Assembly: GCA_963785725.1 (NCBI GenBank)
Contig: CAWAWS010000007.1
Span: 352,001-416,000, forward strand
Length of the DNA stretch: 64,000 nucleotides
Source: an uncultured delta proteobacterium
GTDB taxonomy: Bacteria; Myxococcota_A; Polyangia; Palsa-1104
Direction of reading: 5' to 3'
Part shown: in pieces, positions 1,648 to 38,950 of the stretch
Position numbering within the stretch: the stretch's first letter is position 1
Layout: each line of letters begins with the position of its first letter
Position numbers and translations under genes: made by a program
The notes under the pieces: model-generated
Seen by the model: the letters and a program-made list of their open reading frames with translations, nothing else
Databases searched by the model: none
Told to the model about the DNA's origin: nothing

Positions 1648-1675
1648 CCGATCCGTGATAGCGCTGAGCGCGACC

Positions 1676-2824: not shown

Positions 2825-2834
2825 GGAACGAACG

Positions 2835-4243: not shown

Positions 4244-5356
4244 ATGATCGGCTTCCTCGAAGAGCGGCACATCGCGTTGCGCTATCGCGCGCAGGCTTGG
4301 GTCGACGCGGCCGGGCTGGAGAATGACCACGATCCGGCCGAGCTCGTCGCGCGGCTGGCGCGTCACGAGCTCTTGCGCGCCTGCGTGCCGGCGGCGTACG
4401 GCGGCCTGCGCGAGCGCGTCGAATTGCGCGACTTGTGCGTGCTGCGCGCGGTCATCGGCTATCGATCGTCGCTCGCCGACACGATGTTCGCCATGCAGGG
4501 CCTCGGCAGCTATCCGGTGACGCTGGCTGGCACCGAAGCGCAGAAGCAGGCGCTCTTGCCGTCGGTGGCGAATGGTCAAACCATTTGCGCGTTCGCGATC
4601 ACCGAGCCGGAAGCGGGCAGCGACGTGTCGAGCGTCAGCACGCGCGCGGTCCGCGACGGCGATGGCTACGTCATCGACGGCGTCAAATGCTTCATCAGCA
4701 ACGCCGGGCTCGCGCACTCGTACGTGCTGTTCGCGCGCACGTCGGACGATCGGCATCGCGGCCTCACGGCGTTCCTCGTCGACGGCAAAGCCAATGGTTT
4801 AACCATTACGCCGACCGAGCTCATCGCGCCGCATCCCATCGGCACGGTGACGTTGCGCGGCGTGCGCGTGCCGGCGTCGGCGCGCGTGGGCGAGGAGGGC
4901 CAAGGCTTTCAGCTGGCGATGGCGACGCTCGATTTCTTCCGCACGTCGGTGGGCGCGGCGGCGTTGGGCATGGCGGCGCGCGCGCTCGACGAAGCCAAGG
5001 CGCGCGTCAAGGCGCGGCGGCAGTTCGGCAAGGCCCTGAGCGAGTTTCAGGGCACGCAGATCGCGCTCGCCGACATGGCCGTCGACGTCGCGGCGTCGCG
5101 GCTGTTGGTGTTCTCGGCGGCGCAGCGCATCGACGGCGCCGATCAGCCGGGCAGCGTCGACGCGGCGATGGCCAAGCTGTACGCGACGGAGGCGGCGCAG
5201 CGCGTCGTCGATCGCGCCGTGCAGCTATTCGGCGGGCAAGGCGTGGTGGCCGGCTGTATCGTCGAGCGGCTCTATCGGGAAGTGCGCGCGCTCAGAATTT
5301 ACGAGGGCACGAGCGAGATCCAAAAGCTCGTCATCGCCAAGGCGCTGCTGCGCTGA
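4244..5356 (+). CDS. Acyl-CoA dehydrogenase
   Basis: [33 protein letters not shown]. Confidence 0.95.
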
Positions 5357-5496
5357 AACGCGCGGTCCACGGGCATTTACGCGACAGTCGACACGCGGCG
5401 GGCGCGCAGGGCGGGCGCGCGCATCGGGCGACTGCGCTCGGCAGCGTGCTCGTCGGGGCGTCCGACGCGACATTCGACGGCATGCATCATCGCTGG

Positions 5497-5680
5497 TTCG
5501 GCGCGGAATGCGACGGCGTGCACTATCGCGCGGTCGGCGCAGAATGTGACGGCATGCGCCATCGCGTGTTCGGCGCGGAATGCGACGGCATGCGCGATGG
5601 CGCGTTCGGCGCGGAATGCGACGGCATGCGCGATGGCGCGTTCGGCGCGGAATGCGACGGCATGCGCGATGGCGCGTTCG
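5497..5680. repeat. 36-bp tandem repeat, ~5 copies
   Basis: Unit TTCGGCGCGGAATGCGACGGCATGCGCGATGGCGCG at 5497, 5533, 5569, 5605, 5641. Confidence 0.9.
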
Positions 5681-5820
5681 ACGAGCAAGCGACGGCCTAT
5701 TTGCTGCTCGGCTCGGTCGCGCATCCGACGGGGGCGTTCGATAGCGCTGTCGCGCTGCGCGGATCGCGATAAATTACAGCTCGCGGCGCTGACGCGTTCG
5801 CAAAGGGAATGGTTCAACCA

Positions 5821-6186
5821 ATGCCGCATTACGAGAAGCACGTCTTCATCTGCACCAACGAGCGCGACAAAGACAACCCGAAGGGCGACTGCGCGCGCCG
5901 CGGCTCCGACGACATTCGCGACGCGTTCAAGAAGGGCATTCACGAGCGCGGCTTGAAGGGGCGCATGCGTGCCAACGCGGCCGGCTGCCTCGACCAGTGC
6001 GCGTTCGGGCCCACCGTCGTCGTCTATCCCGAGCAGGTTTGGTACTCGGTGCCGACGCGCGCGGACGCCGAGGAGATCATCGAGAAGCACTTGGTCGGCG
6101 GTGTTCCCGTCGAGCGGCTGCTGTTGCGCACGAACAAGGACAAAGAGCAGGACAAAGCCGGCAAGGAAGGCAAAGAGCCCAAATGA
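5821..6186 (+). CDS. Thioredoxin-like [2Fe-2S] ferredoxin
   Basis: HVFICTNER...C...AGCLDQCAFGPTVVVYPEQVWY. Confidence 0.92.
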   Translation: MPHYEKHVFICTNERDKDNPKGDCARRGSDDIRDAFKKGIHERGLKGRMRANAAGCLDQCAFGPTVVVYPEQVWYSVPTRADAEEIIEKHLVGGVPVERLLLRTNKDKEQDKAGKEGKEPK

Positions 6187-6437
6187 AGAAGCCGCAAATT
6201 CTCGTCGGTGTGGCCGGGCTGGCGCTCGGTCTGTTGCTCGGCGGCGCGTTCATCGGTCGCGCGCATGCGCAGCAGCCGGGCGCACGCTTTCAGTACATGT
6301 GCCAGACGAAGCTGAACAAAATCTGGACCCCCGAAGCGCAAGCCAGGCTCAACGAGCTGGGAAGCCAGGGCTGGCAGCTCTTGCCCACGCGCAGCCCAAT
6401 GAACGAGGACGTCTATTGCTACGAGCGTCGCTTCTGA
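6183..6437 (+). CDS. Small secreted hypothetical protein
   Basis: ATGA overlap with the ferredoxin stop, signal peptide ending AHA, LNELGSQGWQL motif. Confidence 0.75.
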   Translation: MKKPQILVGVAGLALGLLLGGAFIGRAHAQQPGARFQYMCQTKLNKIWTPEAQARLNELGSQGWQLLPTRSPMNEDVYCYERRF

Positions 6438-6485
6438 ATGGTTTAACCAATCTTCGGATTGGTTAAACCACTCGTCGCTGCCGTC

Positions 6486-7961
<1,476 letters not shown>

Positions 7962-7978
7962 AGGGAATGGTTAAACCA

Positions 7979-9520
7979 ATGACAACGCCAAGTGAGACGA
8001 CGTTTCAGCCGCAATTCCCCGAGCAGTTCAACATGGCGCGCTACTTCCTCGACGCGCGGATCGAAGAGGGGCGCGGCGATCACGTCGCCATCATCGACGA
8101 CAGCGGGCAGTACACCTATCGCCAGGTGCAAGCGATGGCGAATCAGGTGGGCAACGCGCTGACGGCGATGGGCGTGGGCGTCGAAGATCGCGTGCTCATC
8201 GGGCTCTTCGACAGCGTCGAGTTCGCGGCGGCGTTCTTCGGCATCTTGAAGATCGGCGCCGTCGTGACGATGGTGAATCCCGAGCTGCCCGACGGCGATT
8301 ATCAGCACTACCTCGACTACACGCGGGCGCGCGCGCTCATCGGCGACATTGGTTTGACCAATCGCATTGCGCCCATGATCGAGAGCTCGAAGCTGTTGCG
8401 CGGCGTCTTGAGCGCCGGCGGAAATTGGGCGGCGAAGGTCGGCGGCGCGTCGACGGAGCTCGTGAACTTCGACAGCTCCAAGGACGATCCGTCGGTGTGG
8501 CTGTTCACGTCGGGATCGACGGGGAAACCGAAGGGCGCCGTGCATCTGCAGCATGATTTTGCGTACAACACCGAGTGCTACGCCAAGCCGGTGCTGAAGA
8601 TGCGCGCCGACGACGTGACGCTCGGCGTGCCCAAGCTGTTCTTCGGCTACGCGACGGGCAGCGACTTGATGTTCCCGTTTGCCGTCGGTGCGACGGCCGT
8701 GTTGTTTCGCGAGCGGGCGACGCCGGAGAAGGTGCTCGAGCTGTGCGCCAAGCACCAGGTCACGGTGCTGACGAGCGTGCCGACGATGATCAACAAGATG
8801 GTGCAGGCGGTGGGCGGCAAGCGTTCGCTGGCGCCGTTGCGCGCGGTGATTTCGGCGGGTGAGGCGCTGCCGGCCGAGCTCTATCACCGCTGGATGGAGA
8901 CGTTCGGCGTCGAGATCCTCGACGGTATCGGGTCCGCCGAGCTGTTCCATATTTACATCACGAATCGACCGGGCGAGGCCAAGCCGGGGTCGCTCGGGCG
9001 CATCGTGCCCGGCTACGAGGCGAAGATCGTCGGCGCCGACGGCAACGTCGTCCCCGACGGTGAAATCGGCACGCTGTGGGTCAAGGGCGACTCGGCGGCG
9101 ATCTGCTATTGGCAGGCGCACGAGAAGTCCAAAGAGGTGTTGCGCGGCGATTGGGTCGTGTCGGGAGACCTGTTTCGGCGCGACGGTGAGGGCTACTATT
9201 ATTATGCCGGCCGCGCCGACGACATGCTGAAAGTGGGCGGCATTTGGGTGTCGCCGCTGGAGGTGGAGTCGTGTTTGCTGCGGCATCCGAACGTGCTGGA
9301 GGCGGCGGTCGTCGGCTACGAGGATGACGACGGGCTGGTGAAGTCGTTGGCGTTCGTGGTTCTGCGGGATGCGACGGCGTCGGACGAGCTGGCGCGCGGG
9401 ATTATCGAGCACGCCAAGAGTCAGCTCGTGCATTACAAGGCGCCGCGGAAGGTGGAGTTCGTGGCGGCGCTGCCGCGGAGTGACCGGGGGAAGATCCTGC
9501 GGCGCGAGCTGCGGACGTGA
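7979..9520 (+). CDS. Benzoate/anthranilate-CoA ligase family
   Basis: FTSGSTGKPKGAVH, KLFFGYATG, LDGIGSAE, GRADDMLKVGGIWVSP; start could also be 7967. Confidence 0.92.
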   Translation: MTTPSETTFQPQFPEQFNMARYFLDARIEEGRGDHVAIIDDSGQYTYRQVQAMANQVGNALTAMGVGVEDRVLIGLFDSVEFAAAFFGILKIGAVVTMVNPELPDGDYQHYLDYTRARALIGDIGLTNRIAPMIESSKLLRGVLSAGGNWAAKVGGASTELVNFDSSKDDPSVWLFTSGSTGKPKGAVHLQHDFAYNTECYAKPVLKMRADDVTLGVPKLFFGYATGSDLMFPFAVGATAVLFRERATPEKVLELCAKHQVTVLTSVPTMINKMVQAVGGKRSLAPLRAVISAGEALPAELYHRWMETFGVEILDGIGSAELFHIYITNRPGEAKPGSLGRIVPGYEAKIVGADGNVVPDGEIGTLWVKGDSAAICYWQAHEKSKEVLRGDWVVSGDLFRRDGEGYYYYAGRADDMLKVGGIWVSPLEVESCLLRHPNVLEAAVVGYEDDDGLVKSLAFVVLRDATASDELARGIIEHAKSQLVHYKAPRKVEFVAALPRSDRGKILRRELRT

Positions 9521-10017
9521 CGGCGGCGGGCGCGGGGTTCGCGGCGGGCGCGGGGTTCGCGCGAGGCGCTCGGGGCGCGACGTTGGCGGCGGATGAGGCG
9601 ACGTGCGCGATGTTCGCAACAGGCGAGACGACGTGCGCGATATTCGCGGCGGCTGGCGCGATGTTCGCGACATGCGAGGCTCGGGGCGCGACGTTGGCGG
9701 CGGATGAGGCGACGTGCGCGATGTTGGCGGCAGGCGAAATGACGCGCGCGATATCCGCGGCGGCTACGGCCATGGGCATGTTGTTCGCGGCTGGCGAAAC
9801 AACGAGCGCGACGTTCGCGATGTTCGCGTCCCGGCAACCGACGGTCGCGATGGTCGCGGCAGGGGAGTTCGCGCGAGGCGGCGCGGCCGTCATGTTGGGC
9901 GCGGAGCAGGCGCTCGAAGGCGCGTCGGCGACGCGCGCCGACGGTGCGTTCGCGAGGCGCGCGACCGCGCAATGCGCGTCGGCGACGCGCGCGACCACCG
10001 CTCGAGCCGACGCGTGA
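9517..10017 (+). other. Ala/Thr-rich repetitive ORF filling the operon gap; coding status uncertain
   Basis: GTGA overlaps with both neighbours; internal duplication ARGATLAADEATCAM. Confidence 0.35.
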
Positions 10018-10772
10018 GGCGCCTCGGCGAGCTGACCTGGCCCGAAGCCGAAGCCCTGCGCGCGCGCGAGCCGATCATGCTCGTGCCGATCGGCTCCACC
10101 GAGGCGCACGGCCCGCACTTGCCGCTGGCCACCGACACTATCTTGTCCGACGAGCTGGCGCTGCGCGCCGCCGCTGCGCTCGAAGCCGACGGATACGCCG
10201 CCGTCATCGCGCCCGCGCTCGCCTACGCCATCACCGACTATGCCGGCGATTTCCCGGGCACGATCTCGCTGACCGCTGCGACCGCCGTCGCAGTTTTATC
10301 GGACATCTGCAGCTCGCTCATCGGTCGCGGCTGGCGTCGCGTCTGCCTCGTCAACAGCCACCTCGAGCCGGCGCACGTGACGTCGCTGAAGGACGCTTGC
10401 GCGCAGGCGTTCGCGCGCACCGGCGTCAACGTCGCGTTCGCCGATCAGCTCGATCGGCGCTGGGCGCGCACGCTGACCGACGAGTTCAAGCGCGGCGCCT
10501 GCCACGCGGGAAGCTACGAGACGTCGCTGGTGCTGGCGGCGCGACCGGAGCTCGTACGCGACGAGCTGCGCCGCGGATTAGTGGTTAAACCAATCGACCT
10601 GGCCAAGGCGATGCGCGAAGGCAAGCGGACGTTCATCGAGGCCGGCGCCGACCAGGCGTACTTCGGCGACCCGGCGGGCGCTACGGTTGAAGAGGGCAAC
10701 GACATCTACGCGCGGCTGGTGGTCATGGTCGTCGAGACCGTGCGCGCCGCGTGGCCAATCGAGAATGGTTAA
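10014..10772 (+). CDS. Creatininase-family amidohydrolase
   Basis: LTWPE...VPIGSTEAHGPHLPLATD, FPGTIS, HAGSYETS. Confidence 0.92.
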   Translation: MRRLGELTWPEAEALRAREPIMLVPIGSTEAHGPHLPLATDTILSDELALRAAAALEADGYAAVIAPALAYAITDYAGDFPGTISLTAATAVAVLSDICSSLIGRGWRRVCLVNSHLEPAHVTSLKDACAQAFARTGVNVAFADQLDRRWARTLTDEFKRGACHAGSYETSLVLAARPELVRDELRRGLVVKPIDLAKAMREGKRTFIEAGADQAYFGDPAGATVEEGNDIYARLVVMVVETVRAAWPIENG

Positions 10773-11412
10773 ACCAATTTCGAAATTGGTTTAACCATTC
10801 AGTGGGCGTTCGCGCGACCGACTTCGGAAGCGATCCACGTCGAGCGACGAAATCGATGCGCGAGCCTGCTTCCTCCACGTTCAATCGACGATGGGTGAAG
10901 TCGAGGTCGACGCGCCCGAGATGGGTCGGATAGTTCGTCTCGGCGTATCGACCTGTCTCGGCGTATCGATCGGACTCAACACGCCGATTCGGTATCGGCT
11001 GGGAACGCCAGACGGTGGGAACGCCGACGGAATGCCGAGACGGGTCGGCACGTCATGAGAGACATGCGGCGAGGCGGGGCTTTAAGTTTCAGCCGGGGCC
11101 GGCGCGACGGACCGATTCGGTGTGGCGAGACAGCCGAATTCGGTGCGGGCAGATTCGACGCAACCAACTCATCGGCGCTACCAACTCATCGGCACGTTGA
11201 CACCGATCGGGCAGCCGTAATGGAGTCCGTGCGCCGAGACTGATTCGTGCGGCGAAGTCGAGTCTCGCGCCGCTCCGCCGCGACTCTGCCCGCTCCGATG
11301 GAGCCGAGAGCCAGAGCGCGCCTGACGATGAGAATGCCGTCGCCGCGCTGAGCATAATGGTTAAACCAGTCCTGGAATTGGTTTAACCATTCGGCGGGCG
11401 TTCCCGCCAGCG

Positions 11413-11796
11413 CTACTTGCCTTCGGCGCTGCTTCCCTGCGCGGCCGCCATCTGCGGCGAATCCGTCACCGGACGGCGGTGCCAGTGCGGAACGTGGAAC
11501 TGCCACGCGTGCCCGTCGTAGACGTACTGCGCGCGCACGTACTCGTAGCCCGACTTGCCGGTCACCCAGCGACCGTCTCGCCACACGTGGTGACCGTCGA
11601 TGAAATCCCAGTAACCGGCGACCCAGATCGATCCCGGCGACGGGCAGGGCGTCTTCACTTCCGACTTCGGCTCGGGCGGCTGGTTCGGCACTTCGACGAC
11701 GAGCGTCGGCGTTGTAGAAGACGTCTGCGTCGTTACGGCGGCGCAGCCGAAAGCGGAGAGCGAGAGGCAAAGAGCGATGGAGCGCGTGATGTTCAT
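11413..11796 (-). CDS. Lipoprotein with YXWGXW-type repeats
   Basis: Lipobox AFGC; PSPGSIWVAGYW, HVWRDGRW, FHVPHW. Confidence 0.8.
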   Translation of the reverse strand: MNITRSIALCLSLSAFGCAAVTTQTSSTTPTLVVEVPNQPPEPKSEVKTPCPSPGSIWVAGYWDFIDGHHVWRDGRWVTGKSGYEYVRAQYVYDGHAWQFHVPHWHRRPVTDSPQMAAAQGSSAEGK

Positions 11797-11978
11797 GCGT
11801 GCGAGCTAGAGCAGAAGCCGTGCCACGAGTCGCGCGAGCGCTGCGTCAATCAACCCGCACGCTTGCATGGGACTGCGCCGACCAGATCGGGAAGTACACA
11901 CCCACCTACTGGGGTAAGTAGCCACCATCATTGGGAAACCGGAGTAGCTAAGCTTACGTTAGATGCAAGCGGGTGGGG

Positions 11979-12017
11979 TGAATGAGCGCTCATTCAAAAT
12001 GAGTGAGGGCTCATTCA
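11979..12017. promoter_or_regulatory. Perfect 18-bp palindrome plus a degenerate copy 21 bp downstream; operator-like
   Basis: TGAATGAGCGCTCATTCA (11979) and TGAGTGAGGGCTCATTCA (12000). Confidence 0.6.
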
Positions 12018-12469
12018 GTGGGCGTTGGCGTGCTTACACAAGATGCAACAGGCGGTCGCGGCAAGGTCCGGCGCGCGGGTGCATCGTCGGCGATGTGCTC
12101 GAGTCGATCGCTTATTCACGCGCGAGCCGTGAGCCGTGCGCAGCGCCCAAATCGAAGCGAGCGCCTGAACCGAAGATTGGTTGAACCACGCGTAGCCAGC
12201 AGCGTTGCTTCCGAGTCGTGCGCGCGAACCGAGGAAGCGAGAGATCGTGGCGCGCGTTACGCGGGTCGCGGTTACGTTGTGCGCGTACACCGAGGCGCGA
12301 GAAATCGCGGCGCGTAGCATGCGCTGGGGCTCGAAGTGGAGTTGTGCGAATAGGTCGAGGAGACCAGAATCGTCGCGGGCGTTGCGCGGGCCGCGGCTGG
12401 AAGTGGAGTTGTGCGCGTGGACCTAGAGCGGGAGAAATCACCGCCGCGTGCGCGCGCGACTGATCGAGA

Positions 12470-12800
12470 GTGAATCGTGCGCGAGAGGCTGAAGAAATCG
12501 CGGCGCGTTGTGCGCGCGCGACGGATCGGGATGGAGTCGTGCGCGAGAGGCTAAGAGAGCGCGGCGCGTTACGTGCGCGACGGATCGGGACGGAGTCGTG
12601 CGCGAGAGGCCGAAGAAATCGCGGCGCGTTACGCGCGCGATCGAGATTGAGTCGTGCGCGAGAGGCTAAGGAATCGAGCCGCGCTCTGCGAGCGACGGAT
12701 CGGGATTGAGTCGTGCGCGAGAGCCTGAAGAAATCGCGCTGCGTCGCGCGTGCGGCGGACGCGCTTGAGTCGTGCGCGCGAGCCGAGGGCTGAAGAATCG
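12470..12800. repeat. Degenerate ~58-60 bp tandem repeat, ~6 copies
   Basis: Recurrent GAGTCGTGCGCGAGAGGCT(G)AAGAAATCGCGGCGCG. Confidence 0.8.
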
Positions 12801-13162
12801 CCGCCACACTGCCCGTGCGACGGTCGATGGCCGAGTCGTGGAGCGCCGAGCGTTCGGGAGTCGCCGCCGCATGGCCCGTGCGGCTGGTCGAGACTGCGTC
12901 GTGTGCGTGAACCAGCGCTCGGCGAATCGCGCCGCCCTCGGATTCGCCCGCCGCGTCGAGCTGCGGCGGAGCCCGACGAATCGGTCTGAATTGCCTCTCA
13001 GAGGCCGCGTCGAATCGGCCCGTGTCCACGTTCGGCGCGGCACGCCGCGCCTCCCGCCAGGTCGCGTGGTCGAGCTACGCGAAGTACCGCGCGACCGCGT
13101 CGAATCGGCGCGTCGAGCTGCGTTCGTTCCGTCCGACGCGGCATTCCGCGCGCGTGGTCGAG

Positions 13163-16570: not shown

Positions 16571-16634
16571 TTGTAGAATTGGTTAAACCAATCGCGGGCA
16601 GTCGTCAATCGCAGTTTCGCTCTATCCTGCTTCC

Positions 16635-17696: not shown

Positions 17697-17880
17697 CGCG
17701 AGCGCCGATCGACTATCGCCGAGCCCCATTTCGCCGACGGCAAGTGACGCGAGCACCGACCGACTATCGCCCAGCCCCATTTGCCGCTGGTGACGGCGCG
17801 AGCACTGATCGGCTATCGCCCAGCCTCGTTTGCCGCTGGTGACGGCGCGAGCACTGATCGGCTATCGCCGAGCCCCATTT
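17675..17880. repeat. ~50-bp tandem repeat (x4) seeded from the 3' end of the upstream gene
   Basis: CCATTTCGCCGAYGGCAAGTGACGCGAGC..CTATCGCC at 17675, 17726, then degenerating at 17777 and ~17826. Confidence 0.85.
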
Positions 17881-18042
17881 CGTCGCTAGCCTGGAGATTG
17901 GTTAAACCAATCGGCGCGCCATTCCTGCTGTGGGGTGCGACACGTCAGCGGCACTCTGGCGAGATCCAGCAAGCCGAGATCTGCGCCGTACGGACGGTTC
18001 GGCGCCCGGCCCAGCTGAGCTCCAGCGCAATCCAGCCGAATT

Positions 18043-26882: not shown

Positions 26883-27327
26883 CCGCGGAGTGTACTACTA
26901 AATTGGTTTAACCATTGCTCGCACCGTCGGACATGCGCGCAGCGCAGTTGGCTCGACGCTTCGTGATCGCCCGCACGTTGCAGCAGCGCTGGCCATTGAC
27001 GTCTTGATGCGACGTCGCAGCGGAATCGGCGCGACGGCAATGGTTAAGCCAATCCTGCGACGTGGGCAGAGGGGCGCGTCCGCAAAGCCAATCGTCAACC
27101 ATGCTGCGCTTCGTCTATGTCGACCGACCGCCATCCTCGCCTTGCGCACTGCGAGATGGCGCTTGGCGTACTGCCGCGCGTGGTTAGCGGAGCGTGACGC
27201 AGCCGCCTCGAGCTCGCGATTCTATTGATCTGCATTGTTGGCCAAGCTCGTCGAGCACTGCCACTACCGCCGATGTCCACTCGAGCACGAGGCGAACGTC
27301 TCTGCTTCGGGGCGAATGGTTAAACCA

Positions 27328-29454: not shown

Positions 29455-30343
29455 GCCTCAGGCTATCGCGCACCGTCGGCGCCCACAACTTTTCGCGGCG
29501 AATGAGGCCTATTTCGCGCGCGATTTCACGGCGAGCGCGTGGTCGTAGTCGTCGCGATGTGCGGCCAACGCCCGCGCCCGCCCGCTATGCCCTCGCTTGT
29601 TGCGAATGGTTAAACCATTCGGCGAAAGGCTGGGCAGGCCTTGCCCGCATGCGGGAGCGTGGTGGCGGGAAGGGTCGACAGAGGTCCGAATTCGACCGAC
29701 CGCCTCACTCGGATTGGTCTGACCGTTATGCAGCGCGGGACCGTTCCTTGGCGATCGTGCGCGAACGAACGGCCAACGAGGGAACGAGGGAACAAGGCAA
29801 CGCAGGAACGAAAGAACGAAGGAATGCGAGAACGAAGGAATGAGAGAGCGAAGGAGCGAAGGAGCGAAGGCACGAAGGCACGAACGGGCGCGGCCGCCCA
29901 GTCACTGTGGTCGATGCTTGTTCAACCTTTGGTAGGGACGCGAAGCGAAGTGGGGATGACGACGGAATGTGAATAGATCGGGTCGACGCTCGCTCCATAT
30001 CAGTCGACGCAGAGGCTGCCGCGCAACGTCGACGCGCGCGTATCTCGTCTCGCTCCAAATCAGTCGAAAGCAGAAGCCGCTGCACAACGTCGACGCGGGC
30101 GTCATCTAGGATTTCACCGACGCGGTCAGCGGCCGCGCGGCCACAATTCCTGACGAATGCGAAATGTGCTCGGCCGTAAACACCGATTGGTGAACCGCCG
30201 GGAACGATGTTCGTCGTGCGACGAGTCTTGAATGCCGAGAGCGTGCTGACGGCAGCTCAGCGTTCGTCGCCGCATTCCTTCGCGACGTTTCGCCAATGGC
30301 AGCTCCGCTAATGGTTAAACCATTGGGAGCAATGGTTTAACCA

Positions 30344-30739
30344 TTAGCGGGCGGCTGGCTGAACGGCGTCCAGCATGCGGGCGAGGACGTGGCCGACGGC
30401 GAGCGGCCATATCGTCACTACCGTGACCCAGGCGGCCAGCGTCGCGCCGAGCGCGAGGCGGGGACGGCGCAACCGCAAGCCGCTCGCGAACGCCCAATCG
30501 ATCATGTAGGTCACGAGCGCCGTCAGCGATGCGGCCAGGAATGCCACAGCCGGCGGATATCCGACGCCGAGGAAGACGCACCAGCCGATCAACGCCGCAG
30601 CCACGTTCGTACCGTCGCGCGCATAACCCAGCCACGACGGTGGGGCGCCCGTGTCGACGGCGCGCAGACGCGAGAGCGCCTCGGCGAAGAGCGCCAGCGT
30701 CGCGGCCAGCGCCACGTCGGCCACGACGGACGCTGGCAT
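30344..30739 (-). CDS. Small membrane protein
   Basis: Hydrophobic ORF; start chosen 7 nt after TAGGAT. Confidence 0.65.
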   Translation of the reverse strand: MPASVVADVALAATLALFAEALSRLRAVDTGAPPSWLGYARDGTNVAAALIGWCVFLGVGYPPAVAFLAASLTALVTYMIDWAFASGLRLRRPRLALGATLAAWVTVVTIWPLAVGHVLARMLDAVQPAAR

Positions 30740-30790
30740 GACGGGCATCCTATCCGAAAACATGCTACAAGGGACGTGGAGGACAAGTAG

Positions 30791-31006
30791 ATGGGTCTCG
30801 GTATCGGAGAGCTGCTGATCTTGCTCGTGATTGTGCTGCTCGTCTTCGGCGCAGGAAAGCTGCCGCAGATCGGCGACGCGCTCGGCAAGAGTATCAAGAA
30901 CTTCAAGCGCGCTTCGAATGCGCACGACGAGATCGAGGTTTCGCCCAAGAAGCCCGAGCTCAGCGACAGTGGCAAGACGCCCGACAGCGCCCACAAGTCT
31001 TCTTAA
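30791..31006 (+). CDS. tatA: Twin-arginine translocase TatA/E
   Basis: [39 protein letters not shown]. Confidence 0.95.
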
Positions 31007-31329
31007 TTCATCAGCATTTCAGGTTCTAACGCTCGTCAAAAATAAGCAGATCCTGATCGCTCCCGGCGGAACACCGGGATGCTCGCGTCGTCGCGTTCAT
31101 TCGACGCTCGAGGTTTGGGTTCGCGCGGGGCGTGGCGTCTAGCGTGGTTCGTTCTATCTCGACCCGCTGACGGAGCGACGGGCTCGGCGGTTGCTCAGCG
31201 CCGGGAGGCGCCGCTGGGCCCGGCCATTGGCCGCAGTGTGGCAAAGCTAAACCAGTCAACTGCGGCTTCTGGAGCAAACCGCCTCGGCCTGGGCGCGGCT
31301 GCTTCTCGCTGCCGATCTGATGATGCCGA

Positions 31330-31990
31330 TCGAGACGAGATTGGGTAGCGGTGACGCGAGGCCGCTGCTTCGACGTCCTGATTCGATCGAGACGGCTCGC
31401 GTCGAAGTCGCGCAGCAGCTTCTGCTTTCGACCGATTCGATCGACATCCGTTCGGCGTCGGAGTTGCGCGCCGGCTTCTGCTTCGACTGATTGGAGCGAG
31501 ATACGCTCGCGTCGAAGTCGGGCAGCGCTTCCGCTTTCGACTGATTCGATCGAGAGACGCTTGCGTCGGAGTCGCGGGCTGCTTCTGCTTCGACTGATTT
31601 GGAGCGAGATACGCTCGCGTCGAAGTCCCGCAGCGCTTCCGCTTTCGACCGATTCGAGCGAGATACGCTCGCGTCGAAGTCGGGCGGCGGCTTCTGGTTT
31701 CGACTGATTTCGATCGAGATCCGTTCGGGTCGAGATCGCGCAGCTGCTTCTACTTTCGACTGATTTCGAGATACGCTTGCGTCGAAGTTGCGCGGCGGCT
31801 TCTGGTTTCGACTGATTCGATCGACATAGGTTCGGGTCGGATCGCGCAGCGGCTTCCGCTTTCGACGTACTGATTTCGAAGCGCGTCGCGTCGAAGTCGC
31901 GCGGCCGCTTACTGCTTTCAACGTGTTGATTTCGATCGAGGCAAGATTGCCGTCGCGTCAACGGTTCGCGCGGCCGCTTCCGCCTTCGAG
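31330..31990. repeat. Degenerate ~55-bp tandem repeat, ~10 copies
   Basis: Recurrent GCGTCGAAGTCG...GCTTCTGCTTTCGACTGATT...GAGATACGC; inverted relatives at ~29970-30100. Confidence 0.8.
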
Positions 31991-32156
31991 GCGCCGATTT
32001 GATCGAGGCGAGATAGCGTTCGCGTCGCGGTCGGGCTGCACCTGCTCTCGGCGCGCGGATCCCGATCGAGCGGCCGCGACCGCGATCTCGAATGATGCCG
32101 ATCGCCCGCTTCCGCTCTCGACGCTACAACCGATCGCGACGAAAGCGCCGTCGCGC

Positions 32157-32714
32157 CTACTCGCGGTCGGTCAGCCGCTTCTCGAGATCCTCGACGCGCT
32201 GGAGCAGTGCCCGCATTTCCTTCTCCAGCCCCGAGAGCGGCGACAGCGCATCGAACGTCGAGCGGATACGCTCGTCGACCTTCTTCTGCCACTCGTCGAA
32301 CGTCTGCTGCGACCGCTCCAGGAACTCGCGCACGGGATGCGGCGCCGCAGGCGCAGGCGCCTCAGCCGTTGCACCCTCGACCGGCTCCGTCCCGTCTTCG
32401 CCGCCTTCGCGCTTGAAGATGCCGAGCATCTTCTCGCCCGCCTGCGACGCCAGCTGCGTCATGTTGCTCGCGCCCGACTGGATGATGTTGCGCAGCGCCG
32501 ACAGCGGCAAGAAGCTCTGCTTCTTCTCCTCCTCGAAGATGATCTGCGTCAGCGTAATCGCCGTCAGATCCTCCTTGGAGTTGTTGTCGACGATCTTCAC
32601 ATCCTCGCCGCCGCGGATCATGTCGGCGATTTGTTCCAGCGTCACGTATCGGCTGCGCTGGGTGTCGTACAGCTTGCGGTTCGCATAACGCTTTACGACG
32701 CGGGTCTCCGCCAT
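32157..32714 (-). CDS. PHA-synthesis regulator (PhaR-like) DNA-binding-domain protein
   Basis: VKRYANRKLYDTQRSRYVTL...EDLTAITLTQIIFEEE. Confidence 0.9.
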   Translation of the reverse strand: MAETRVVKRYANRKLYDTQRSRYVTLEQIADMIRGGEDVKIVDNNSKEDLTAITLTQIIFEEEKKQSFLPLSALRNIIQSGASNMTQLASQAGEKMLGIFKREGGEDGTEPVEGATAEAPAPAAPHPVREFLERSQQTFDEWQKKVDERIRSTFDALSPLSGLEKEMRALLQRVEDLEKRLTDRE

Positions 32715-32933
32715 CGAATTCCCTTTCACAGTGTCGATCGCCAAGTGTCCCTCGAAGGACGCTAGCACGCGGCGTCAACCGTCGCCAGCGCGATGCGTCA
32801 GATTGGTCAAACCATTAGCACGCGTTTCCGAAATTGGTTAAACCATTGCCGCGCGTTTCCCGGCAATGGTTTAACCAATCGTGGTCGCTGGTTCAACCAT
32901 TATGGTTCGTCGATCGCGTGCTACGATCATCGC

Positions 32934-33680
32934 GTGGACGCTGCGACCCTCGCGCGCCGACTAGTGGCGCTGCCCGCCGCCGCGATGCGCCAGGCCGCGC
33001 TGCGCGCGACGCTCGATCCGCTCGACGACGAGGCGGCGGCGCGTTTGTGCGGCGAGCTCGTGCGGCGCGGGCCCGATGGCTCCCCGTTCGATGTCGCCCT
33101 GTTGGCGCTGACGGCGCTGCTCGACTCGAACGCGCTCGGCTACGAACGGCACGCGGCGCTCTACGCGACGGCGCGCCGCCTCGACGACGAGCAGCTCAGC
33201 CTGCTCCTGTTGTCGGCGCAACCGCCGCCGCCTGGCCGTCCGCAGGCGGTCGAGTTTCCCGGGCGCGAGCTGACGCTGGGCGAGCGGAAGTCGTTGGCGC
33301 GCGGTCGGCGTCGCGAGCTGCTCGATCGACTGCTGCGCGATCCCGACGACAGCGTGCTCACGATCTTGCTCGGCAATCCACGCATCACCGAGGCGGACGT
33401 CGTGCGTCTGGCTGCGCGCCGACCGACGACGGCCGCCGCGCAGCGCACGATCCTCAGGTGCGAGCGGTTCATCGCGCGCTACGCGGTGAAGCGGGCCCTC
33501 GTGTTCAACCCCTTCACGCCGACGGATTTGGCGTCGCGCCTGCTCGTCTTGTTGGCGCGGCCCGATCAGCACGCCGTCGCCGCCGACGCGTCGCTGCACG
33601 ATACGGTGCGCGCCGCCGCGCGCGCCGCCGTGAAGCGCCCGGCGATTGGTTTGACCTTATTGCGCGGCGGAAAAGAGTAG
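32934..33680 (+). CDS. Hypothetical alpha-helical protein
   Basis: LTLGERKSLAR...LLGNPRITE...ALVFNPFTP; GTG start 6 nt after TACGAT. Confidence 0.75.
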   Translation: MDAATLARRLVALPAAAMRQAALRATLDPLDDEAAARLCGELVRRGPDGSPFDVALLALTALLDSNALGYERHAALYATARRLDDEQLSLLLLSAQPPPPGRPQAVEFPGRELTLGERKSLARGRRRELLDRLLRDPDDSVLTILLGNPRITEADVVRLAARRPTTAAAQRTILRCERFIARYAVKRALVFNPFTPTDLASRLLVLLARPDQHAVAADASLHDTVRAAARAAVKRPAIGLTLLRGGKE

Positions 33681-34184
33681 GCGTCATTCCGGTCAGCGTG
33701 GGCGGAGGCTGCGTTGGCGTCGCCTCGTGGTAGTCGGCACGGCAGGCGGCGCTCGTTCTCATCACGCGACACGAAGCATTGGGCACTTCCTCGTTCGACA
33801 CGGCTCTCGCCCTCGCCGCCGATTGGTTTGACCTCTGCGCGCGTCACAATCGGCTGTTCAAGGGCGAGGCTGGTTCGCTCGCGATCGAGAGGGAGCGCGC
33901 GCCCTCTCGCAACGCCCGGATGCACGGCTGAATCGAATACCAACGAATGGTTAAACCAATGCGCGCAGTGGGTTGCGCGCGGTCGACAGGGACAGCGAGC
34001 TCCGCGCAACGCCCGGATGTACGGCTGAATCGAATACCAAGAATAGTTAAACCAATGCGCGCAGTGGTTTAACCAATGCGCGCAGCGTGAGCCAAGGCGT
34101 TGAGTGGTCAACCAGCGCGCTGAAGTAGTTAGCCAATGCGCTGAGTGGTTAGCCGGTTAGCTAATGCGCTAGGTCGTTAGCCAA

Positions 34185-34290
34185 TGCGTTCATTGGTTAA
34201 ACCAATGCGTTCATTGGTTAAACCAATGCGTTTATTGGTTAAACCAATTCGTTTATTGGTTAAACCAATGCGTTCATTGGTTAAACCATT
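34185..34290. repeat. Array of five palindromic sites with an exact 21-bp period
   Basis: Unit CATTGGTTAAACCAATGCGTT; cores at 34194, 34215, 34236, 34257, 34278; decayed copies from 33948. Confidence 0.95.
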
Positions 34291-34308
34291 GTGCACTGAT
34301 CGGCGGGA

Positions 34309-35247
34309 CTAGAAGACGAAGGCGCCGGAGAAGCTGAGCTGGACTTGGCCGCGTGACCGGTCGGTAATTTGCGTGGGATCGACCTTGCCGCAGTCGGTGG
34401 CGCTGTCGTTGCAAAACGTGTAGGCGAATTCGCCGGTGAACGCGAGGAAGTCGTAGAGCACCCGGAAGCCGGCGAACATGCGCCAGCGAACGATCGTGTC
34501 GGGATCGGGGAATATCGTGTTGGCGTTGATGTCGTTGGAGGTCGCGCCCTGTTTGTAGCTGTCGACGGCGGGCGTCGTGTCGATGACTTCGCCGCGCACG
34601 AAGCTGAGCAGCGCGCCGGCGCCGATGTACGGATCGAGCGTGAACGTGCCGCCGACGCCGAACGACTTCGAGACGGTCGCATCCAGCGCCAGCGTCGTCA
34701 GATCGACCTCGCCCGTGCCGAGCAGGTGCGACACCGACGCGCGCACCGCCAGCGACGGCAGCGCCCAGCCGTGAAAGCCCTCGTGCAGCGCAAACTTCGC
34801 GTAGCCTTGCACCGCGTACAAATTGCTGTCGATGAGCTTCGTCGCGCCGGCGCCGACCTCGAAGCCGGGCAGCGGCCACCACAATCCTTTGCGCGCCATC
34901 ACCGAAATCGTCGACAAATAGCTCGAGGAAACGCTGGATACGCCCTGTTTCCAGTAATCGGCGTTATTCGATATCTGCGTAAATTGCGTTTCGAATGCCA
35001 ATTGAAAGCCGGAATAGCCGAGCGTATCGGCGGGCGCCAGCGGTCCCGGCGCCATCACCAGCGACAGCTCGCTCATGAGGCTCTTGTACATCGACTGCCG
35101 CGTCGGATCGGTCGGATCGTTGAACGTCCCCGGCGTCGACGGTGGGCCGATGATGCGTTCGAGCGTCAAGTCGTTGCGGTCGGCGCGCGCGCGCAAGGGC
35201 AGCGCGGCGACGGCGAATGCGCACAGACCGACGGTGAGCGCGCGCAT
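34309..35247 (-). CDS. Putative outer-membrane beta-barrel protein
   Basis: Signal peptide (ARA), alternating beta strands, C-terminal Phe (LSFSGAFVF). Confidence 0.7.
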   Translation of the reverse strand: MRALTVGLCAFAVAALPLRARADRNDLTLERIIGPPSTPGTFNDPTDPTRQSMYKSLMSELSLVMAPGPLAPADTLGYSGFQLAFETQFTQISNNADYWKQGVSSVSSSYLSTISVMARKGLWWPLPGFEVGAGATKLIDSNLYAVQGYAKFALHEGFHGWALPSLAVRASVSHLLGTGEVDLTTLALDATVSKSFGVGGTFTLDPYIGAGALLSFVRGEVIDTTPAVDSYKQGATSNDINANTIFPDPDTIVRWRMFAGFRVLYDFLAFTGEFAYTFCNDSATDCGKVDPTQITDRSRGQVQLSFSGAFVF

Positions 35248-35312
35248 GTCCGTCGACGAGGCTAACCGCGCGCTCTCTTGAGTGTCAAGAAACGTTGCAG
35301 TAGCGTCGGCGC

Positions 35313-36104
35313 ATGTCCTATAGCGAGATCTTGTATGAAGTGCGCGACTCGGTCGCTCGCATCACGCTCAATCGGCCCGACAAACGCAACCCGCTCGGCC
35401 CGACGACGATCGGCGAGCTTCTGCACGCGCTCGACGGCGCCAAGCGCGACGACGGCGTGCGCGTCATCGTGCTCACCGGCGCCGGCAAGGTGTTTTCGGC
35501 CGGCGGCGACCTGTCATCAATGGGTAGCGGCGGTACGCCCCTGCAAGCGAGCGGGAGTGGTTCAACCAAAGCGGGAACGTTCGTCGATCTGAACTTGGCG
35601 CTCACGCAGGTGGGCAAGCCGACCATCGCGATGGTCAATGGTCACGCGCTGGCGGGCGGGCTCGGGCTCGTCGTTGCGTGCGACGTCGCCATCGTCGCGG
35701 ACGACGCGCAGCTGGGGACGCCGGAGATCAACGTTGGGCTGTGGCCGATGATGATCATGGCGACCATCTTCCGCAACGTGCCGCGCAAGCGTGGGCTCGA
35801 GCTCATCATGACGGGCGACAAGATCTCGGCGGCGCAGGCGGCCGAGCTCGGCTTGGTCACGCGCGCCGTGCCGCGCGATCGGCTGGAGGCCGAGGTCGAT
35901 GCGCTGGCGCAGAAGCTGGCCGCGAAGTCGCCGATCGTGATGAAGCTCGGGCTGGAGGCGTTTTATCGCGTGCAGGACATGGAGTTGGAGCCGGCGCTGC
36001 AGTATCTGCAAGGGCAGCTCATGGCGGTGTTGTCGACGGAGGATGCGCGCGAGGGCTTGATGGCGTTCCTCGAGAAGCGCGCGCCGCAGTGGAAGGGGAA
36101 GTAA
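35313..36104 (+). CDS. Enoyl-CoA hydratase/isomerase
   Basis: ITLNRPDKRN, FSAGGDL, KPTIAMVNGHALAGG, PEINVG. Confidence 0.95.
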   Translation: MSYSEILYEVRDSVARITLNRPDKRNPLGPTTIGELLHALDGAKRDDGVRVIVLTGAGKVFSAGGDLSSMGSGGTPLQASGSGSTKAGTFVDLNLALTQVGKPTIAMVNGHALAGGLGLVVACDVAIVADDAQLGTPEINVGLWPMMIMATIFRNVPRKRGLELIMTGDKISAAQAAELGLVTRAVPRDRLEAEVDALAQKLAAKSPIVMKLGLEAFYRVQDMELEPALQYLQGQLMAVLSTEDAREGLMAFLEKRAPQWKGK

Positions 36105-36390
36105 GCCCAGCGCCCGTTGTGCAATGGTTAAACCAATTGCGGGATTGGTTTAACCATTGAATTTTCCGTTGCGTTGGCAGCAAGCGAGCAGCGGCCGCTG
36201 CGAAATTGTGGTCAGGCGGCGCGGCCGCCGTTGCGAACTTGTGGTTAGGCGGCGCGGAGGCCGCCGCGAACTTGTGGTTAGCCGCGCTGCGGCTGTCGCG
36301 AGTCGTGGTCAGACCGAGCCTTCCTCGATGGTCAAACCATTCGCCTGATTGGTTTAACCATTCGCGAAGCCGCCGATCGGCGGTGGAGCG

Positions 36391-37509
36391 TCAGGGCTGC
36401 GGATCGGCGCAGCAGCGGAAGCCGGTGGAGTAGTCGTGATACGTCTTGGCGTGGGCCGTCGTCGTGTAGAGGCAGCCGGGACCGTTGATCTTCGCGTCCA
36501 CGAAATAGCCGCCCTTGAAGATGCCGTCGCCGGCGCTGCTCGTGGCGTCGATCCACTCGTGCAGATTGCCGTGTAGATCGTAGATGCCCCAGCTCGACAC
36601 GCAGCGCGGAAAGCTGCCGCCGGGCGCGACGGTGTTCGGCTGGTCGTCGCAGCAGCTGCTGTTCATGTTCGCGGACGTGAATACGTCGCCGGTGCCGAAG
36701 CAGTCGTTGACGGGATTCGTCGCGCGGCCTTCGTTGCAGGCACCGGCCTGGTAGGTGTTGCCGTAGGGATAGGTCCAACCTTGCGGCCCTTGGCAGGCGG
36801 CCAGCCATTCGCTCAGCGTGCACAGTCGCTTGTGTGCGGCGGCGCAGGCGGCGGCGGCCTGCGCTTCGCTGATGTAGCCCTGCGGCTTCACGCCGTCCGC
36901 GACGACGGCGACAATGGTTGAACCTTCGGCGACCGTGTCGACGGGCTGATCGTACGGATGCGCCGTCACCGCGCCGGTCGCGTCGACGACTTCGGTCGCG
37001 GCCTCGAAGCGGTCGACGCAAACGGCGCTGGCGCTCGTGCTCGTGCCACCGCCGCCGCCGTTCGCCGTGCCGCCACCAGTTCCGCCGCCATTTGTGCCGC
37101 CGCCGCTCGAGCTGCCACTCGAACCCGCCCCGCCGCTCGAGCTGCCACTCGAACCCGCGCCGCCGCTCGAGCTGCCGCTCGAACCCGCGCCGCCGCCGCT
37201 CGAGCTGCCACTCGAACCCGCGCCGACGCCGTTCGCGCCGCCGGTTCCGCCGCCATTCGGACCCGCGCCGCCGCCATCGGCGGTCGCGCTGCCGCCGTCG
37301 GCGGCGACGAGGCTGACGCGCGCCATGCCCGCCGGACAGCCGTTGCCTGCGTCGGGCGGTGCGGCGCCGCCGTCGCTCGTCACGCCGCCGTCATGCCCGC
37401 CGCCGCCGTCGCGCGCGCTGCCGCCATCGGTCACACGCGGGCTGTGCGACCGCGAGCAATTGGTTAAACCAATCGCGACCACCCAAGCGCACACGCGAAA
37501 TCGGCGCAC
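36391..37509 (-). CDS. FGE/SUMF1-domain lipoprotein with Gly/Ser linker
   Basis: CVDRFE, KRLCTLSEW, GIYDLHGNLHEW, TGFRCC; GSSGSSSGG repeats. Confidence 0.88.
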   Translation of the reverse strand: MRRFRVCAWVVAIGLTNCSRSHSPRVTDGGSARDGGGGHDGGVTSDGGAAPPDAGNGCPAGMARVSLVAADGGSATADGGGAGPNGGGTGGANGVGAGSSGSSSGGGAGSSGSSSGGAGSSGSSSGGAGSSGSSSGGGTNGGGTGGGTANGGGGGTSTSASAVCVDRFEAATEVVDATGAVTAHPYDQPVDTVAEGSTIVAVVADGVKPQGYISEAQAAAACAAAHKRLCTLSEWLAACQGPQGWTYPYGNTYQAGACNEGRATNPVNDCFGTGDVFTSANMNSSCCDDQPNTVAPGGSFPRCVSSWGIYDLHGNLHEWIDATSSAGDGIFKGGYFVDAKINGPGCLYTTTAHAKTYHDYSTGFRCCADPQP

Positions 37510-37549
37510 GCCTCAGGATAACGGAAGACGACTGTGCTAGGGCTAATGC

Positions 37550-38950
37550 GTGTCATTTCGCGATCGCTACGAGCCCTTCATCGCCTGGCGTTACCTCTAT
37601 CGCCCGCGGCAGAACAAGACGGTGCGCACGCTGACGCTGTGGCTGCTGGCCCTGACGCTGCTCACGCACGTCGCGGCGCTCTTCGCTCACACGCAGCTGC
37701 AGGTGGTCGGCACGGCGCTGGCGCTGCCGTCGCTGCTATCGTTCCTGTTTTGCCTGCTGCTCAACGTCTTCTCGGGATTTACGACGGTGTCGATCATTGG
37801 TGTGACCATTGGCGTGCAGGCGTTGATGGTCGTCTTGGCCGTGACCTCGGGCTTTCAGCAGGCGTTCAAGCAGAAGGTCCTCGGCGTCAACGCGCACGTC
37901 ATCGTCATGAAGTACGGCATGGACTTCGCGGAGTATCGCGACGTCATGAAGAAGGCCGAGCAGCAGCCGCACGTCAAAGCGGCGGCGCCGTTCGTGTTCA
38001 TCGAGGCGATGGTGGCGGCCGACAAATCGTTCGGCGCGATGATCAAAGGAATCGACCCGGTGCGCTCGCTGCAGGTGCTCGACGTCAAGCAGAGCCTGGT
38101 CAGCGGTCGGGTCGAGGAGCTGGCGCGGCGCGCACCGCCGAACGATGGCGGCGATCCGCTGCCGTCGGCGCTGATGGGCAAGGAGCTGGCGAAGAAGCTG
38201 CACGTCAAGCTCGGCGATCGCGTGCGCCTCGTGTCGCCGAAGATCGATCTCGACCCCGGCGCCGGGCAGCTGGCGTCGCGCGAGTTTCGGCTCGCGGGCG
38301 TGTTTTCCACGGGATTCCAAGAGTACGACAGCCGCCTCGTCTACATCAACGTCACCGACGCGCAGGCCTACACCGGCAGCGGCGACGTCGTCACCGGCGT
38401 GGAGCTCAAGCTCGACGACGTCGACAAGGCGCAAGCGGTGGCCAAGACGCTGTACGCGAATTTAGGCGGACCGCCCTATCGCGTCATCGATTGGGAGGAG
38501 CTGAACCACAACTTGTTCACGGCGCTGCGCATGCAGAAGGTGATCATCACCGTCATCTTGACGCTGATCGTGATCGTGGCGGCCTTCAACATCATCGCCG
38601 CGATGACGCTGCTCGTGATTGGTAAGACCAAAGAGATCGCGATCCTGAAGTCGATGGGCATGCGTTCGGCGGGCGTGGCGCGGCTGTTTCAGGCGGCGGG
38701 TTTGGTGATGGGCGGGCTCGGCATCACATGCGGTCTCGGCGTCGGAGCAGCGACGGTGGCGGTGCTGCGGCGCTACAATTATCAGCTCGATCCGCATGTC
38801 TATTTGATCGATCAGCTGCCGGTGAAGGTGAACGCCGACGAGGTCTTGTTGACGGCGGGAATCACGCTCGCGATCTGCTTCGTGGCGACGCTGGTTCCGG
38901 CGCTGCAAGCGGCGCGGTTGGAGCCGGTCGAGGGGCTGCGGTACGAGTAG
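37550..38950 (+). CDS. lolC: LolC/LolE lipoprotein-releasing ABC permease
   Basis: VLAVTSGFQ...LGVNAHV, VAAFNII, KTKEIAILKSMG, PVEGLRYE. Confidence 0.9.
   Translation: MSFRDRYEPFIAWRYLYRPRQNKTVRTLTLWLLALTLLTHVAALFAHTQLQVVGTALALPSLLSFLFCLLLNVFSGFTTVSIIGVTIGVQALMVVLAVTSGFQQAFKQKVLGVNAHVIVMKYGMDFAEYRDVMKKAEQQPHVKAAAPFVFIEAMVAADKSFGAMIKGIDPVRSLQVLDVKQSLVSGRVEELARRAPPNDGGDPLPSALMGKELAKKLHVKLGDRVRLVSPKIDLDPGAGQLASREFRLAGVFSTGFQEYDSRLVYINVTDAQAYTGSGDVVTGVELKLDDVDKAQAVAKTLYANLGGPPYRVIDWEELNHNLFTALRMQKVIITVILTLIVIVAAFNIIAAMTLLVIGKTKEIAILKSMGMRSAGVARLFQAAGLVMGGLGITCGLGVGAATVAVLRRYNYQLDPHVYLIDQLPVKVNADEVLLTAGITLAICFVATLVPALQAARLEPVEGLRYE

Follow-up and report, generated by a model that had tools for sequence, protein, structure and literature searches.

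Within a 64,000-nucleotide stretch of the genome of an uncultured delta proteobacterium (GenBank assembly GCA_963785725.1, contig CAWAWS010000007.1, positions 352,001 to 416,000; hereafter the window), a palindrome of 15 letters with the full consensus AWTGGTYNRACCAWT is crowded into one patch, and three further patches lie elsewhere in the genome. The sites are confined to these patches, are paired at 21 bp across unrelated spacers and occur in excess in the gaps between convergent genes. The patches span genes of mixed functions, differ between lineages and, where they run through genes, place the motif in codons that tolerate it. We speculate that a FadR-type repressor encoded within one patch may have turned into a density-selected organiser of chromosome domains, resembling Rok of Bacillus subtilis, that would coat and fold the patches instead of working as a usual switch of genes. 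Its binding and looping are predicted from comparative analysis, and we give this reading an even chance of being correct.

A palindrome confined to four patches

In the window, TGGTYNRACCA occurs 64 times, always between 4573 and 37471 and never in 1-4570 or beyond 37475; order-2 Markov simulations of the same stretch (n=60) gave 0.08 copies on average and at most 1. Across the source genome (labelled G000; 8.9 Mb in 47 contigs, which carry C numbers; its relatives are G001-G013), 159 sites form four patches that cover 83 kb on 3 of the 47 contigs, with 64 sites in patch A, 27 in B, 41 in C and 27 in D (Table 1). The patches measure 11-33 kb, carry 1.7-2.4 sites per kb and together make up about 1% of the genome. 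Outside them, 16 sites are found in 8.8 Mb, against 9 expected from Markov models. The exact form WTGGTTWAACCAW occurs 99 times inside patches and 0 times outside, and near-matches with three mismatches are still 6-fold enriched inside. The G+C content of the patches is ordinary (0.66-0.70), and a genome scan revealed no other gapped palindrome with 5-base arms clustered to the degree of AWTGGTYNRACCAWT.

The sites are no assembly artefact, because codon alignments against 12 relatives place sites at the same positions in other genomes, and because the four sites of segment 5760-7084 all recur in a metagenome contig of independent origin (92.6% identity), with 0 of 90 differences falling inside them; two of those four had been selected by the search that found the contig.

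Of 41 genomes, 8 contain exact 13-mers, and all 8 belong to one family. Among 300 other genomes sampled from the phylum, the highest count of a looser form was 19; of the six genomes with the highest counts, the five that were listed have their sites scattered singly. There are about 8 matches in G010, 22-47 by the 15-mer count in G001, G003, G004 and G012, and 159 sites in the source genome. Patch A has orthologous counterparts in G001-G004, G007 and G012, with nearly equal borders within the genus, patch B is common to G002, G003, G010 and G012, and patch C to G002-G004. Patch D, whose 27 sites cover mixed genes in one lineage, is unique: the orthologous DNA of five relatives, 95 kb in all, holds 0 sites. 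Similarly, a MoxR/VWA operon and a pilus-type cluster that are bare in the source genome carry sites in G012. The metH gene carries two intragenic sites inside patch C of G002-G004 and none in the source genome, where it lies on C3. A metagenome scan for site pairs gave at least 127 stretches; the high-G+C hits with a match were mostly homologues of patches A or B, and, among the matches listed, four multi-site hits that matched neither patch were tandem repeats.

A candidate binder inside patch A

The gene in the middle of patch A encodes a FadR-subfamily GntR regulator, in which an N-terminal GntR winged helix-turn-helix (wHTH; PF00392) is joined to an all-helical FCD domain (PF07729). Its structural model (predicted local distance difference test, pLDDT, 88) has E. 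coli FadR as top Foldseek matches, and a search of the ESM Atlas returned generic FadR clusters only. The N-terminus of the protein, MVKPI (ATG GTT AAA CCA), is encoded by a site itself, and a site pair lies at the regulator start in 7 of the 7 orthologue loci where the start is assembled. As predicted from its position, this pair is likely an autoregulatory operator. PMC4494728 gives the operator consensus of the subfamily as TKGT-N3-ACMA with A/T-rich flanks, which AWTGGTYNRACCAWT fits, and describes a preference of Asn39 for a central A/T of the operator; residues R42, N53 and G73 of the regulator correspond by spacing to positions 28, 39 and 59 of that study. Among 95 aligned homologues (95 of 184 hits), 75 begin with the site-encoded peptide and 88 have the basic C-terminal tail, a feature of 7% of the source proteome. 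Judged from these sequence features, the regulator at 15773-16570 is very probably the binder, with one dimer predicted on each site and the two dimers of a pair lying next to each other at a distance of two helical turns.

Orthologues of the regulator are present in 8 of 42 genomes of the order, and 7 of those 8 have sites. The eighth, G011, has an identical recognition helix and 0 sites in an 86% complete genome, while G007 (51% complete) has sites and no orthologue was found in it. Both genomes would suit a reading in which the patches are real and another protein binds them, such as the FadR paralogue on C19, the mid-patch regulator being merely one target; the TGGT-N3-ACCA frame shared by FadR-family proteins would suit it too. 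We consider this very unlikely. Most genomes of the order contain a weaker, paralogue-level match and have no patches, the scattered sites outside patches mostly differ in their centre, and three-quarters of the regulator homologues (the 75 of 95 above) start with the site-encoded peptide.

These scattered single sites, mostly of the form TGGTCNGACCA, lie upstream of genes (C2:269118, C2:279193, C12:8733, C15:384697 and others) and are likely the ordinary regulon of the FadR paralogue at C19:148331-149044. One of them precedes a GMC paralogue and appears conserved in G002-G004. The sole strict copy outside patches (L238:8119, equal to G000 C20:273119) lies 44 bp upstream of aconitase and is possibly a true single target. 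Elsewhere in the subfamily, the PDB chain 9wfi_A, a chimera with the DNA-binding part of the mycobacterial FadR-like protein Rv0494, begins MVEPM, and on this example an operator over the start codon may recur among FadR-subfamily regulators.

Placement in gaps and in genes

Spacing between neighbouring sites is strict. In the four patches, 36 pairs are at 21 bp, one is at 22 bp and none at 20 bp; in G012, a 20-bp distance separates 18 of 21 close pairs. The spacers of 21-bp pairs are mostly unrelated and their orientation is mixed. Of all 159 sites, 50 lie inside genes and 109 are non-coding, the latter mostly closer to a 3' end (78 of 109) and often within 60 bp of a stop codon (40 of 109). 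Sites occupy 14 of 15 convergent gaps and 6 of 15 divergent gaps (Fisher p=0.005). Scans of window positions 4001-20000 for sigma-70 promoters and terminators gave results at chance level.

This arrangement bears on whether the patches are an overgrown local regulon, in which the regulator would repress the patch operons and the extra sites would serve as auxiliary operators or roadblocks that raise its local concentration and tighten repression of the neighbourhood. Such a reading accords with the operator pair on the regulator's own start in all seven loci, with the FadR fold and consensus, with the presence of CoA and lipid genes in both patch A and patch B, with the 5810-9520 operon, most of whose gene junctions have sites, and with G010, which resembles a small ordinary regulon. 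According to PMC11841835, Rok both represses and loops, so that repression and chromosome organisation overlap as explanations. In an ordinary regulon, sites would lie mainly upstream of operons related in function, in whatever part of the genome, yet only 14 of the 109 non-coding sites are within 60 bp of a start and nearly a third of all sites are within genes. Nine of the 15 divergent gaps have no site, yet convergent gaps are almost all occupied. Only 3 of 16 enoyl-CoA hydratases, 1 of 24 acyl-CoA dehydrogenases and 1 of 19 AMP ligases are in patches, and most members of these CoA-enzyme families lie outside, without a site. The functions of patch genes are mixed, including tatA, RluA-type synthase, birA, S1-domain and glycosyltransferase genes, and the 27-site patch D arose on mixed genes in one lineage. 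We hold an overgrown local regulon to be unlikely, though the most serious of the alternatives.

Several convergent gaps of the patches are far longer than in congeners, and some gaps outside patches have expanded too. Their lengths, here and in congeners, are 640 versus 38-59 bp at 10773-11412, 286 versus 20-31 bp at 36105-36390 and 528 versus 3-21 bp at C33:63269-63796, and all three have sites at both ends; at the first, the pair 11358/11379 closes the end opposite to 10766/10787. A mobile element with site-bearing ends was considered and rejected, since gaps flanked on both sides have interiors that differ from gap to gap; some carry unrelated genome-wide repeats. Dispersed repeats of 130-180 bp with many genome-wide copies lie in patch gaps at C33 ~41690-41860, C33 ~59290-59450 and C39 ~304580-304760, and a degenerate tandem repeat of roughly 54-110 bp is common to two gaps of patch A (~31395-31820 and 29989-30107). 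The gap at 18950..19069 is skipped in the contigs of close relatives, in two runs.

Within genes, the preliminary description had reported about 20 sites, read in several frames. All 13 positions that it cited hold the motif and translate as described within real genes, and the count agrees with ours: 18 of the window's sites are in coding frames (17 without the start-codon site), and three looser TGGT-N3-ACCA copies at 21815, 37798 and 38620 are also within genes. Proteins were annotated by Pfam and NCBIfam scans. Over the four patches all three phases are used, giving 20 xVKP, 18 NGLT and 9 WLNQ peptides. Their codons were said to be AT-rich and rare, and genome-wide this is true of TTA (0.8% of Leu), CCA (2.5% of Pro), GTT (2.8% of Val) and GGT (8% of Gly), but not of AAA, which makes up 20% of Lys codons. 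Patch proteins exceed the rest of the proteome 9- to 124-fold in their density of motif peptides; for 20,560 patch residues versus 2.37 million others, counts are 21 versus 267 for the xVKP type, 14 versus 13 for the NGLTN type and 9 versus 35 for the WLNQ type.

Orthologues without sites do not carry these peptides; the same peptides and codons there would have told against selection for the DNA motif. Five site-free family members (G005, G006, G009, G011 and G013) have zero sites in 150 kb of syntenic DNA, and their peptides differ, with for example AVRP, ALAT, ALSL or SVRV in place of LVKP, and RLPE, RLRE or ALTL in place of WLNQ. In alignment, some motif peptides are substitutions (7035, 8350, 26027 and 28300) and others insertions (14665, and a patch B ketoacyl synthase loop with three 7-residue repeats), in variable columns. 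Compared with site-free congeners, site codons reach an identity of 0.36 and random windows from those genes 0.73 (39 site-orthologue pairs, 15 genes); among the site-free orthologues themselves identity is 0.36 at site columns versus 0.65 gene-wide (328 pairs). At 20 sites with both a site-free congener and an outgroup, the source genome and the site-free congener each have 6 private amino-acid changes, and private base changes number 56 versus 29 (p=0.005). By BLOSUM62, site peptides fit their columns no worse (18 sites, p=0.90). Strong damage to proteins was not found on either measure.

Site-free orthologues are nearer to the motif at site positions than elsewhere (6.4 versus 8.3 mismatches; 60 non-independent pairs, 19 sites), and one-step intermediates are present in congeners. 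Patch A has 27 intragenic positions, of which 11 bear a site in a single genome and one, 28300, is common to seven and retained across three genera; in G012, a 20-bp pair occupies the same acyl-CoA dehydrogenase loop as site 4795. Codon identity at shared sites (149/168 versus 205/1802) is partly a consequence of the definition of such sites, and we do not treat it as proof. The DNA motif thus overrides codon bias and picks residues without detectable protein cost, given the variable columns, the 6:6 private changes and the BLOSUM62 fit. The earlier proposal that selection for DNA sites overrides codon bias and alters the proteins stands in so far as rare codons are used and residues dictated; an excess of amino-acid change or a cost to the protein was not found.

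The gap expansions and the undetectable protein cost also suit a local molecular drive, in which the bound protein would stall forks or hold DNA together, and slippage or templated repair would copy the motif into nearby DNA to little advantage for the cell. The tandem arrays at 18952-19057 and 34194-34278, whose copies have flanks in common, and a 20-fold range of counts between relatives point the same way. Set against these are the unrelated spacers of most 21-bp pairs, the graded near-matches and one-step intermediates, which fit stepwise substitution, and the retention of site 28300. On balance, drive is an improbable account of the patches.

By themselves, the intragenic peptides are the smaller point, of a kind already known from uptake sequences. 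In Pasteurellaceae and Neisseria these sequences lie in coding frames at poorly conserved residues, with about two-fold tripeptide enrichment, as PMC2817400 describes. The preliminary description had likened the sites to uptake sequences or intragenic parS. The protein footprint is indeed the same, with the motif in several frames, particular peptides raised at poorly conserved residues and little measurable constraint, and a ComEC-family gene is present in the genome. As a system, however, the likeness fails: known uptake sequences number hundreds to thousands genome-wide, whereas here all 99 exact copies lie in 1% of the genome, local enrichment is far higher and the predicted reader is a cytoplasmic regulator.

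For parS, the likeness lies in clustered palindromes; motif and protein differ, and canonical-looking parS lies away from the patches. Using a parS consensus, we found three parS-like sites 9 kb from dnaA on C19 and the sole ParB gene on C6, with no patch there. In the source genome, strand-corrected skew was weak and a search for dif gave no similar match. In the 7.9-Mb assembly of G002, about 1 Mb separates dnaA from patches A and C, themselves 58 kb apart, which argues against terminus confinement of the kind expected from matS/MatP. The patches are not at the origin. The distribution largely refutes an uptake- or parS-like signal, which we regard as extremely unlikely.

Table 1. Features of the patches; positions refer to the window unless a contig is given
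Feature	Position	Strand	Remarks
Patch A	4571..37473	.	33 kb, 64 copies of AWTGGTYNRACCAWT, 1.95 per kb
Patch B	C7 421-436 kb		27 sites
Patch C	C33 40-64 kb		41 sites
Patch D	C39 304-316 kb		27 sites
FadR-subfamily GntR regulator, predicted binder	15773..16570	-	wHTH and FCD, 265 amino acids (aa), basic C-terminal tail
21-bp site pair	16557..16592	.	over regulator start codon (16559) and just upstream (16580)
21-bp pair 7947/7968	7945..7980	.	first copy gives terminal residues WLNQ, second in 18-bp gap before ligase
21-bp pair 10766/10787	10764..10799	.	over stop codon, one end of convergent gap
Six tandem sites, 21-bp period	18950..19069	.	after PP2C stop
Five sites	25062..25341	.	convergent gap, kinase / pseudouridine synthase
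Seven sites	33946..34290	.	convergent gap; five at 21-bp period
Two 21-bp pairs	36123..36362	.	both ends of 286-bp convergent gap (20-31 bp in four congeners)
Acyl-CoA dehydrogenase, NGQTI	4573..4583	+	also G001, G003
Acyl-CoA dehydrogenase, NGLTI	4795..4805	+	also G001, G004, G007
Flavin oxidoreductase, WLNQ	7035..7045	+	in 0/12 aligned orthologues
Flavin oxidoreductase, AGLTT	7640..7650	+	also G012
AMP-binding ligase, IGLTN	8350..8360	+	in 0/8 aligned orthologues
Creatininase-family protein, VVKPI	10582..10592	+	also G001, G002, G004
GMC oxidoreductase, NGLTN	13879..13889	-	also G001, G003, G004; site-free orthologues NRLAN/NGLAN/NRIAN
GMC oxidoreductase N-terminal region, NGLTN	14665..14675	-	12-residue insertion, missing in four relatives
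134-aa gene downstream of regulator, VVQP	15087..15097	-	also G012; others VVLP/VVMP
Pyridoxal phosphate (PLP) enzyme, WFNH	17385..17395	+	loop gapped in outgroups; also G001-G004
HAD hydrolase, MVEP	18403..18413	-	also G001, G003, G004
RluA-type pseudouridine synthase, MVKPS	26027..26037	-	also G012
SLT/LysM transglycosylase mid-gene, LVKPF	28300..28310	-	in all 7 genomes with regulator and sites; in 0/4 site-free genomes
SLT/LysM transglycosylase N-terminal linker, LVKPI	29137..29147	-	also G002-G004
Enoyl-CoA hydratase, SGSTK	35558..35568	+	in 0/11 aligned orthologues
Lipoprotein signal peptide, IGLTNC	37461..37471	-	also G002, G004; IGLTNFGC in G003
LolC/E-type gene, two looser copies (37798, 38620)	37798..38630	+	patch edge; reached mostly via synonymous changes

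A possible organiser of chromosome domains

In the organiser reading, a regulator dimer would occupy each site, with neighbouring dimers on one face of the helix at 21 bp, and the coated patches would be looped or bridged into compact domains. Selection would then act on local site density and on no single promoter position. The bound regulator may oligomerise, helped by its basic tail, and such higher-order contacts would make a new site pay only within looping distance of an old one; the chances for and against this step seem to us equal. Because new sites would pay only near old ones, patches would fill in, acquire sharp edges and occasionally be founded anew, and because density is what is required, sites would settle where they cost least: after stops, in variable loops, in signal peptides and in insertions. 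Intragenic copies would be the overflow of this requirement, built stepwise at near-motif positions. The patches do show each of these expected traits: filling in, sharp edges, new patches and overflow into tolerant codons. More speculatively, the FCD domain would take up an acyl-CoA-like ligand that turns the chromosome domains on or off. At its fullest, the proposal is that a metabolic FadR-type repressor serves as a sequence-specific, possibly ligand-switched organiser that builds bridged, coated domains of 11-33 kb, born on unrelated genes in single lineages and rewriting tolerant parts of proteins; this version is tentative, and we place it somewhat below even.

Several points weigh against an organiser. 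Bridging by the regulator is a prediction, and on our analysis it could go either way; a role in domain-wide repression may coexist with organisation. The pair over the start codon is placed as an ordinary operator would be, some sites do precede genes, and several CoA and lipid genes fall within patches A and B, as they would in a FadR regulon. The preference for convergent gaps shrinks to 6.2 versus 3.1 sites per kb, and the convergent gaps of patches are long (median 540 bp versus 47), which by itself raises occupancy; the gene calls are our own. Tandem arrays show that slippage adds copies. Among relatives, G011 has the regulator and its recognition helix with no sites found and G010 has few, so that not all carriers need the dense state, and counts from about 8 to 159 vary more than a fixed architectural role would suggest. 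With 57-59% identity to the copies in patches, the metH of the source genome is possibly a replacement. Gene trees, with deep branches unresolved, are too weak to polarise gains against losses.

Several known systems can be compared with the patches. The FadR-subfamily repressors (E. coli FadR, PdhR and LldR; PMC4494728) are alike in wHTH and FCD, in the TKGT-N3-ACMA palindrome with A/T-rich flanks and in autoregulation, and paired cooperative sites are known among them. They are unlike the present system in its roughly 160 sites, a third of them in genes and many after stops, in four patches only, and in its 21-bp pairing fixed throughout and conserved basic C-terminal tail. The search in PMC4494728 was limited to upstream regions and could not have detected a patch pattern. 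Rok of B. subtilis forms eight chromosomal clusters that act as loop anchors and include many genes that are no known targets (PMC11841835, PMC13404874). The four patches resemble it as few clusters of high site density. Rok, however, is H-NS-like, binds A/T-rich and often foreign DNA and has been shown to bridge; here the fold is that of FadR, the site a strict 15-bp palindrome, bridging a prediction, and the patches consist of vertically inherited genes of ordinary G+C.

SlmA with its binding sites (SBS, 24-52 sites), Noc with its own (NBS, about 70), RefZ and MatP/matS likewise put a regulator-family fold to a chromosomal or division role through tens of palindromes placed by position. SBS and NBS extend over most of the chromosome and avoid the terminus (PMC4726725), whereas the sites described here reach 2 per kb within patches of 11-33 kb, which occupy 3 of the 47 contigs, off the origin, with new patches in single lineages. 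Our searches of the open-access literature turned up no account of this motif, nor of FadR-type sites confined to patches. How a transcription factor becomes a chromosome-structuring protein is a question still open (PMC13404874), and living relatives may show the stages of that step: no sites found in G011, about 8 in G010, 22-47 in four genomes and 159 in the source genome. The system is small and defined, with one 265-aa protein, one 15-mer and one spacing. If the organiser reading is true, it would offer a portable way of folding a chosen stretch of bacterial DNA.

Some further features of the patches and their surroundings deserve mention. Patch C includes a 6.2-kb hole without sites (G000 C33:52846-59018) that holds folA, thyA and a 1431-aa FHA coiled-coil gene. 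In patch D, L004:13095-14030 encodes a CUAEP/CCAEP-tail radical SAM protein, which as called falls slightly below the NCBIfam cut-off; its reading frame extends upstream. A second palindrome, GTGATA-N4-TATCAC, has six copies at a 26-bp period at G000 C33:208300-208445, and more on C39, C16 and other contigs. Window positions 940-10772 form one gene run (tryptophan dioxygenase, kynureninase, RidA, enoyl-CoA hydratase, acyl-CoA dehydrogenase, a ferredoxin-like protein, flavin oxidoreductase, AMP ligase and a creatininase-family protein), which we take to resemble the aerobic anthranilate-CoA pathway. Between patches A and B lies a 32-kb site-free stretch with tol/exb, mnmG, Mur ligase and rpoD/dnaG-like genes, which also carries RNase P RNA and tRNA-Met at window positions 57901-58273 and 59100-59174.

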